The notes under the pieces: generated by a model
The model's input: only the letters and a program-made list of their open reading frames with translations
What the model was told of the DNA's origin: nothing
Database searches by the model: none
In this document: one piece after another, positions 1 through 560 of the stretch
Layout: the number at the start of each line of letters is the position of its first letter
How positions within the stretch are numbered: the stretch's first letter is position 1
Translations under genes and position numbers: made by a program
DNA from: Escherichia coli
Lineage (GTDB): Bacteria; Pseudomonadota; Gammaproteobacteria; Enterobacterales; Enterobacteriaceae
Assembly (NCBI RefSeq): GCF_003334255.1
Contig: NZ_QOWU01000218.1
Length of the DNA: 593 nucleotides
Reading direction: 5' to 3' (one strand)

Positions 1-4
1 GCAT
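1..4 (-). CDS. Rz1: Start of embedded Rz1-type outer-membrane lipoprotein spanin (o-spanin); only the ATG at 4..2 and one further base are inside the window
   Basis: ATG at 4..2 on the minus strand is in the +1 frame of Rz, 220 nt downstream of the Rz ATG and inside the Rz codons for ELADA. This is the same offset and motif at which lambda Rz1 initiates. A GAGGG ribosome-binding site lies 9 nt upstream (18..14), and the +1 frame has a TAG stop at 10..8 immediately before it. The lipoprotein signal and lipobox cannot be seen because they lie beyond the window. Confidence 0.5.
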
Positions 5-224
5 CGGCTAATTCCCTCGAGTATTTTGCATCGAGCGCAGCAACATCGCGCTGGCGCACCTGCATATCAGTAATGGTGGCGTTTGCCAGCTCCAGCTCTC
101 TGGCTTTTTTATCGCGCTGCGCTTTGTAGGTGATGGCGTTATCGCGGTAATGGTCTGTTGCCAGCCACAGCGCACCACAGCCACCCGCCAGGACAATAAT
201 CACCACACACAGAACACGGCTCAT
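1..224 (-). CDS. Rz: Rz-type inner-membrane spanin (i-spanin), N-terminal 74 codons; partial, the 3' end of the gene runs past position 1
   Basis: Reverse-complement translation from ATG at 224..222 gives [74 protein letters not shown] with no stop to the window edge. It has an N-terminal hydrophobic signal-anchor segment followed by a charged segment that matches, from memory, the phage lambda Rz N-terminal region ([51 protein letters not shown]) nearly residue for residue. Not in the supplied ORF track because it is open-ended. Confidence 0.9.
14..18 (-). promoter_or_regulatory. Shine-Dalgarno ribosome-binding site (GAGGG) for the embedded Rz1 start
   Basis: Plus-strand ccctc at 14..18 is GAGGG on the minus strand, 9 nt upstream of ATG 4..2. 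From memory, lambda has AAGGAG at the equivalent position upstream of Rz1. Confidence 0.4.
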
Positions 225-231
225 CTCTCTT

Positions 232-363
232 TCACCCCACCAGTCCCGATAACGTCAGGACTCGCCAGGCGGTGGAAAAGAAAATGGCAACCAGCATTAG
301 TGAAAATGAAATGCCGACAATTACACAGAGGATCTTCGCCAGCGTTATGAGTTTGTCTGACAT
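232..363 (-). CDS. Hypothetical 43-aa small membrane protein (one predicted transmembrane helix), translationally coupled to Rz
   Basis: ATG at 363..361 is preceded by AAGGGAGG (378..371) with a 7-nt spacer. Translation is [43 protein letters not shown], then TGA at 234..232, which is 7 nt before the Rz ATG. A hydrophobic stretch of about 22 residues ([24 protein letters not shown]) fits a single membrane helix. The track's longer version (start 453) begins with GTG directly after a stop, has a Gly/Cys-rich N-terminus and lacks a ribosome-binding site. Confidence 0.5.
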
Positions 364-370
364 GCTTAAT

Positions 371-378
371 CCTCCCTT
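371..378 (-). promoter_or_regulatory. Shine-Dalgarno ribosome-binding site (AAGGGAGG) for the 43-aa ORF; overlaps the TGA stop of the upstream ORF
   Basis: Plus-strand cctccctt at 371..378 is AAGGGAGG on the minus strand, a near-perfect complement to the 16S rRNA 3' end, 7 nt upstream of ATG 363..361. Confidence 0.6.
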
Positions 379-560
379 CACGATTTCAACGCAATGACCA
401 GTTTTGCCAGCCCATACAGCATCGGGGACACAGCAACACCGACCGCCACCCACTTAATGGCAAAAGCCAGTGCTCTGCTGATGTCATCAGTTACAGGCGC
501 TTTCAGTTCAAGGCCATTTTTCATAGTCAACCTCAACAGAATTCGTTTATACTTTTCCAT
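378..560 (-). CDS. Hypothetical small tail-anchored membrane protein (60 aa if ATG 560; 48 aa if ATG 524); 5' end unresolved because the frame is open to the window end at 593
   Basis: Frame translates MEKYKRILLRLTMKNGLELKAPVTDDISRALAFAIKWVAVGVAVSPMLYGLAKLVIALKS, then TGA at 380..378. ATG at 560..558 is preceded by AGGGAG (569..564, short 3-nt spacer); the alternative ATG at 524..522 is preceded by GAGG (534..531, 6-nt spacer). The N-terminal part is charged (K/R/E/D) and the C-terminal 25-30 residues are hydrophobic. The stop abuts the ribosome-binding site of the next ORF. Confidence 0.45.
   Translation of the reverse strand: MEKYKRILLRLTMKNGLELKAPVTDDISRALAFAIKWVAVGVAVSPMLYGLAKLVIALKS

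Follow-up and report, generated by a model that had tools for sequence, protein, structure and literature searches.

The locus studied here raises the question of how a lysis gene whose periplasmic segment is close to that of phage lambda comes to carry a membrane anchor that is not. The DNA analysed, hereafter the window, is 593 bases long, and its genes are read on the minus strand, a detail that the initial annotation had left unstated. We conclude with high confidence that the minus-strand segment running from position 224 to position 3 is the 5' part of the spanin gene Rz of a lambdoid, Stx/933W-like Escherichia coli prophage, and that its anchor is a recombinational module joined to the rest of the gene at codon 24/25. 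The full gene has 155 codons, 74 of which lie in the window (Table 1); features of the C-terminal part were taken from identical database records (L001).

Table 1 Features of the window, listed in the order in which the minus strand is read.
Feature	Coordinates	Strand	Remarks
ORF60	378..560	-	60 aa; small membrane-protein ORF; phrog_1115; alternative start at 524 (48 aa)
ORF43	232..363	-	43 aa; small single-pass membrane protein; phrog_4906; 7 nt upstream of Rz
Rz gene, first 74 codons	3..224	-	ATG at 224..222; ORF leaves the window edge at codon 74
Predicted cytoplasmic N-terminus, codons 1-4 (MSRV)	213..224	-	Protein identical to lambda; positive charge at R3
Transmembrane anchor, codons 5-24, non-lambda module	153..212	-	2/20 residues as in lambda; hydropathy; AF2 helix
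Mosaic joint, codon 24/25 (AAC/GAC then CAT)	150..155	-	Four-way DNA alignment; 5' and 3' sides follow different lineages
Juxtamembrane start of periplasmic coiled-coil CC1, codons 25-74 (...SRELAD), lambda-like module	3..152	-	44/50 residues as in lambda
Rz1 ATG (embedded o-spanin gene)	2..4	-	+1 frame of Rz; remainder of Rz1 beyond the window

Along the minus strand the window holds ORF60, ORF43, a 7-nt purine-rich spacer and the start of Rz. Escherichia phage PhiR12_3 (PV340552.1 29476-30068) and several E. coli chromosomes carry its entire length at 100% identity; of 5426 complete E. coli genomes, 1822 contain related sequence, as do 274 phage records, mostly of Stx-converting phages. Gene order in the identical records runs from a class II holin (71 aa) and a lysozyme (177 aa) through ORF60, ORF43 and Rz (155 aa) to terminase genes. 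The N-terminus of the lysozyme looks like a signal-anchor-release sequence. Because holin, lysozyme and Rz follow one another in this order, the window is a piece of a lambdoid lysis cassette, in which Rz lies downstream of the holin and lysozyme genes without directly adjoining lysozyme gene R. Deposited annotations of the full-length Rz (CDS at locus 4370-4837) read 'endopeptidase Rz' or 'lysis protein'. Two plus-strand ORFs (150..350 and 272..397) were rejected: they run antisense to conserved genes, and nothing supports them. An Rfam scan of both strands of the window (E up to 1) gave no match, a repeat search of the window gave nothing meaningful beyond one weak 25-nt inverted pair judged to be chance (72% complementarity, 353 nt apart), and the literature on PhiR12/ECOR13 held nothing relevant.

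Placement of the gene in the lambda Rz family, as proposed in the initial annotation, was borne out by profile and pairwise searches. The full-length protein matched Pfam PF03245 (Bacteriophage Rz lysis protein, Phage_lysis) with E=8.5e-50 over residues 29-153, covering model positions 1-125 of 126, and matched PHROG 13 (phrog_13, Rz-like spanin) with E=1.5e-75. BLASTP against lambda Rz returned 68% identity (E=1e-32) for the 74 residues encoded in the window and 70% identity (E=4e-76) for all 155. An embedded Rz1 gene and the site after holin and lysozyme genes agree with this placement. No NCBIfam model matched Rz, Rz1, ORF60 or ORF43, and a PDB sequence search with Rz found no solved relative.

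The protein also has the domain layout of the family. With a 19-residue window, Kyte-Doolittle hydropathy reached a maximum of 2.59 from residue 4 (2.63 for lambda), which identifies the N-terminal segment as a transmembrane anchor; the initial annotation had called for such a prediction. Hydropathy and the helical AlphaFold2 (AF2) model agree on a single N-terminal transmembrane segment. That model, built from a 35-sequence alignment, has a mean pLDDT of 81 and shows a continuous helix over residues 3-87 (pLDDT 89-96 over residues 21-70), a low-pLDDT linker over 88-121 and a helix over 122-153. Two helices joined by a linker match the published layout of lambda Rz, which comprises a transmembrane domain (TMD) at 1-24, CC1 at 27-87, a linker and CC2 at 121-150 (PMC5295617); the first 48 residues of CC1 lie inside the window. 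Outside it, as read from L001, C99 and C153 align with C99 and C152 of lambda, the cysteines of its homodimer disulfides, and C99 hardly varies across the 35-sequence alignment. Residue R3, N-terminal to the transmembrane segment, is invariant in 113 anchors of the window type; on the model of lambda Rz (PMC5295617), a type II arrangement (N-in, C-out) in the inner membrane is predicted. Every computationally testable feature of the lambda Rz i-spanin family was found in this protein.

The gene for the o-spanin partner is present as well. Rz1 lies in the +1 frame of Rz (L001 4590-4772), at the position corresponding to that of lambda Rz1, and its 60 codons translate to MRELKMKLCVLMLLLVVSACGSTPPAPVPCVKPPAPPAWIMQPAPDWQTPLNGIISPSESG. 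The product has a VSAC lipobox (Cys20) and a proline-rich region, and it matches phrog_3198 (Rz-like spanin) with E=9.3e-31. Rz1 is intact in the identical records yet annotated in neither the phage nor the RefSeq record.

Compared codon by codon with lambda Rz, the window's coding sequence falls into three blocks. The two proteins agree throughout residues 1-4 (MSRV), at only 2 of 20 positions (L19 and A22) in residues 5-24, and at 44 of 50 (88%) in residues 25-74. At the DNA level, identity is 26% over codons 5-23 and 87% over codons 25-74, with the step falling within a few bases. The codons of the last block differ from lambda by 12 synonymous and 6 replacement changes. The lambda anchor that the initial annotation quoted, MSRVTAIISALVICIIVCLSWAV, is exact against true lambda Rz (J02459 45966-46427). 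Its claim of a divergent anchor stands, with a corrected extent: it had assigned the divergence to the first ~22 residues, and the divergent block is in fact residues 5-24, including V23T and N24D. The near-lambda segment that it described after the anchor is present, and the six substitutions that it listed there (N40K, K45E, A50T, M56V, T69S and K70R) are the sole differences in residues 25-74.

We then found both anchor types attached to nearly the same periplasmic domain. Three of the 120 closest database clusters (P0113, P0117 and P0118) have an anchor of lambda type (87.5% identity with that of lambda) in front of a periplasmic domain that is 96-98% identical to the window type and ~78% identical to lambda. 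In one recombinant prophage (L006), the DNA follows lambda up to ...GCTGTTAAT and from CATTACCGCGATAACGCCATCACC onwards follows the window sequence, synonymous sites included. As the four-way alignment switches lineage at this point, the joint lies at codon 24/25, the boundary between the transmembrane and periplasmic parts of the protein. The recombinant prophages (L005-L007) have the same holin and lysozyme; their Rz overlaps the stop codon of R, and ORF60 and ORF43 are absent. Homology between an Stx1a phage and the window starts at ORF43, so the anchor module reaches upstream through ORF43, which we saw upstream of Rz with a window-type anchor in every inspected locus, including the Stx1a phage L004. 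These observations support replacement of the anchor by recombinational exchange. Lambdoid mosaicism, which the initial annotation had offered as the typical source of such a pattern, is here seen directly in the natural recombinants. Stx phages and E. coli prophages often carry the window-type anchor: most of the same 120 clusters have variants of it, ending in N or D and with N or S at position 2.

A different history would be that the anchor is homologous to that of lambda and diverged in place under relaxed constraint, with no module exchanged. The transmembrane segment is indeed the least constrained part of the family, with a mean pairwise identity among 35 diverse members of 20% in residues 5-24 against 42-49% in the helices; both anchors are 24 residues long, and MSRV, L19 and A22 are common to the two. 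Such drift would nevertheless have to bring codons 5-24 down to a random level of identity while the adjoining codons 25-74 accumulated no more than the 18 codon changes given above, with an abrupt change between the two. It would also have to accommodate the presence of both anchor types on periplasmic domains that are 96-98% identical, with the crossover at codon 24/25, and the fact that anchor type tracked upstream gene context in the inspected loci. We rejected in-place divergence on the identity step and the recombinants, the latter having already largely refuted it, and regard it as very unlikely. Even less credence is due to the view that this is a cryptic-prophage gene in decay, which has ceased to function in lysis. 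Many E. coli copies do sit in prophages of unproven viability, a neighbouring DUF6645 gene is frameshifted in one host record, and K-12 rzpR is just such a remnant; yet the identical sequence is found in a deposited phage genome, PhiR12_3, in which Rz (155 aa) and Rz1 (60 aa) are intact, with the conserved cysteines and the VSAC lipobox, as are the holin and the lysozyme.

Exchange of the anchor by recombination also agrees with what is known of the tolerance of spanins to such replacement. Cahill et al. found that an artificial TMD in place of lambda Rz residues 5-24 leaves the allele fully functional (PMC5295617), and Kongari et al. described other i-spanin pairs that are homologous everywhere except in the N-terminal TMD (PMC6139136). 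Among representatives of clusters formed at 50%, we likewise found very varied anchors, all of them abutting a conserved (N)HYRDNAI motif. One family member (P0093, 164 aa, on a 41.9-kb contig) is a natural in-frame fusion in which the transmembrane segment of ORF43 serves as the Rz anchor; its junction lies at about residue 16-17 (...LCVLVGISF/CALWLATNHYRDN...), so that the first two-thirds of the Rz anchor are replaced. Anchor exchange is common and harmless in the Rz family, and it is tolerated because the transmembrane segment of Rz serves only as a membrane tether.

The window-type anchor contains one motif that could be read in another way. Rz residues 6-16 (window 177-209, minus strand) match a PROSITE PS51257-style pattern, which the lambda anchor does not, and the N-terminus of this anchor lineage might on that basis be a lipoprotein signal peptide (lipobox L-A-G-G/C16), leaving Rz lipid-anchored after cleavage instead of held by a type II helix. 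Conservation within the lineage lends this some appeal: all 113 anchors have G17, 111 have C16 and 106 have G or A at position -1, and the canonical lipoboxes LVAC and LLGC are found in many variants. The hydrophobic stretch, however, runs six residues beyond Cys16 (GALWLA), giving a normal TMD of ~19 residues; position -1 is V in 7 of the 113 anchors and C16 is replaced by Y in 2; and, the sequences in this set being close relatives, R3, L5 and L19 vary just as little. Nor is a match to the pattern rare once a TMD with many small residues contains a Cys, and TMDs of lambda type or of artificial origin perform the same task. By the usual sorting rule, Gly at +2 directs a lipoprotein to the outer membrane, and the Gly at +2 here would send Rz there and defeat i-spanin function. 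We rejected a lipoprotein anchor as the main explanation because the motif is confined to one lineage and absent from most of 57 diverse full-length family representatives, and we consider it exceedingly unlikely. Given this restricted distribution and its absence from lambda, the Cys16 motif is probably incidental or serves in helix packing. It is scarcely credible that the near-invariant Cys16-Gly17 pair reflects recognition by the lipoprotein pathway and a lipid or mixed lipid/helix tether of this Rz lineage to the inner membrane; if that were true, it would add a previously undescribed mode of i-spanin anchoring.

Returning to Rz as a type II i-spanin with an exchanged helical anchor, the proposed product would consist of a cytoplasmic MSRV, a single N-terminal transmembrane helix (residues ~4-23) and a long periplasmic alpha-helix, continued beyond the window by a flexible linker, a second helix and the two conserved cysteines. 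Its partner would be Rz1, an outer-membrane lipoprotein whose gene occupies the +1 frame of Rz. Once holin and endolysin had destroyed the peptidoglycan, the Rz/Rz1 complex would disrupt the outer membrane, probably through fusion of the inner and outer membranes, and this disruption would be the last step of lysis. We infer the topology, complex formation and membrane-fusion function of the window Rz from work on lambda. The window-type anchor module is found together with ORF43, whereas a lambda-type anchor is carried by prophages whose Rz gene overlaps the R terminus.

Two uncharacterised small membrane genes, ORF60 and ORF43, are located between R and Rz. ORF43 matches phrog_4906 (E=2.5e-27) and ORF60 matches phrog_1115 (E=1.4e-42), both phrogs of unknown function; ORF43 is annotated as a hypothetical protein, and ORF60 as a hypothetical protein with two different annotated starts. 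Searches of Pfam, NCBIfam and PADLOC with the two proteins gave nothing significant. The ORF60 product (MEKYKRILLRLTMKNGLELKAPVTDDISRALAFAIKWVAVGVAVSPMLYGLAKLVIALKS) is a single-pass membrane protein with a C-terminal hydrophobic segment. Relative to a copy of the locus that is ~92% identical (L013), ORF43 has 10 synonymous codon changes and 1 replacement, a ratio that makes it probably a real gene, and the mostly synonymous changes in ORF60 (4 synonymous, 1 replacement) suggest the same for that ORF. ORF60 occurs in PhiR12 phages and many E. coli prophages; in Stx1a phages an antirepressor gene stands in its place.

A terminator-like hairpin (L001 3968-4000), with a 14-bp stem and a T-run after it, is located between the R (lysozyme) gene and ORF60. 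It is on the coding strand, inside the late lysis operon, and ends one base beyond window position 593. Its location fits the idea that the inserted block is a moron-like module; in a scan for terminator-like hairpins, such sites were no commoner than expected by chance.

Several deposited relatives of the window Rz differ from it in sequence or in annotation. In E. coli ES5 (L013 1068-1535), the N-terminal 110 residues of Rz are of the window type and the C-terminal segment is different (...GVGNDAAVELSPVAGRNVLGIRDGIISDQAALRMLQEYIRTQCIN), resembling that of family members P0155 and P0257; the sequence suggests that this protein has a further mosaic joint within the linker/CC2 region. The Rz CDS deposited for phage PhiR12_1 (L012 1063-1532) begins at an internal ATG and encodes 135 aa; only translation from a GTG overlapping the stop codon of ORF43 yields the complete anchor, (V)NINRMLSAFIVILLVACGALWMATD. 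The opposite error is found in many database Rz entries of 164-183 aa, which are N-terminal over-extensions from gene calling.

Set beside lambda Rz, the window Rz is of the same length class (155 aa compared with 153 aa) and shares the TMD-CC1-linker-CC2 layout, the two periplasmic cysteines and the embedded Rz1, but its anchor residues 5-24 are unrelated in sequence. The surroundings differ too: lambda Rz overlaps the end of R, whereas the window Rz lies ~490 bp from R with two small membrane ORFs between them, and where lambda has S and R as partners, the window-type cassette has a class II holin and a 177-aa lysozyme. A closer relative is the Rz of Stx1a phage Stx1_14040 (BCI49071, 'phage endopeptidase'), which has the same anchor type and the same upstream ORF43, with 94.8% base identity to window positions 1-363; it differs by S2N, G14V, D24N and other substitutions, and by an antirepressor gene upstream of ORF43 where the window has ORF60. 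The initial annotation had named three cryptic-prophage Rz homologues for comparison, all of them found in K-12. RzpD (DLP12) is a lambda-family Rz with a lambda-type anchor, 65% identical to the 74 residues in the window (E=3e-31). RzpR (Rac) is a 5'-truncated pseudogene that begins at the equivalent of lambda M56, lacks an anchor and aligns to the C-terminal 100 residues, and RzpQ (Qin), whose similarity is no more than borderline (18.9 bits, E=0.028), belongs to DUF2514, a different i-spanin family.

The window Rz is a common allele that has already been deposited. It matters little beyond the correct recognition of an Rz spanin allele of Stx phages and of a large share of complete E. coli genomes. 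What is instructive is the clean natural mosaic joint, which coincides exactly with a domain boundary: the recombinants found in nature confirm the result obtained with an artificial TMD in lambda, that the Rz anchor is an interchangeable tether.
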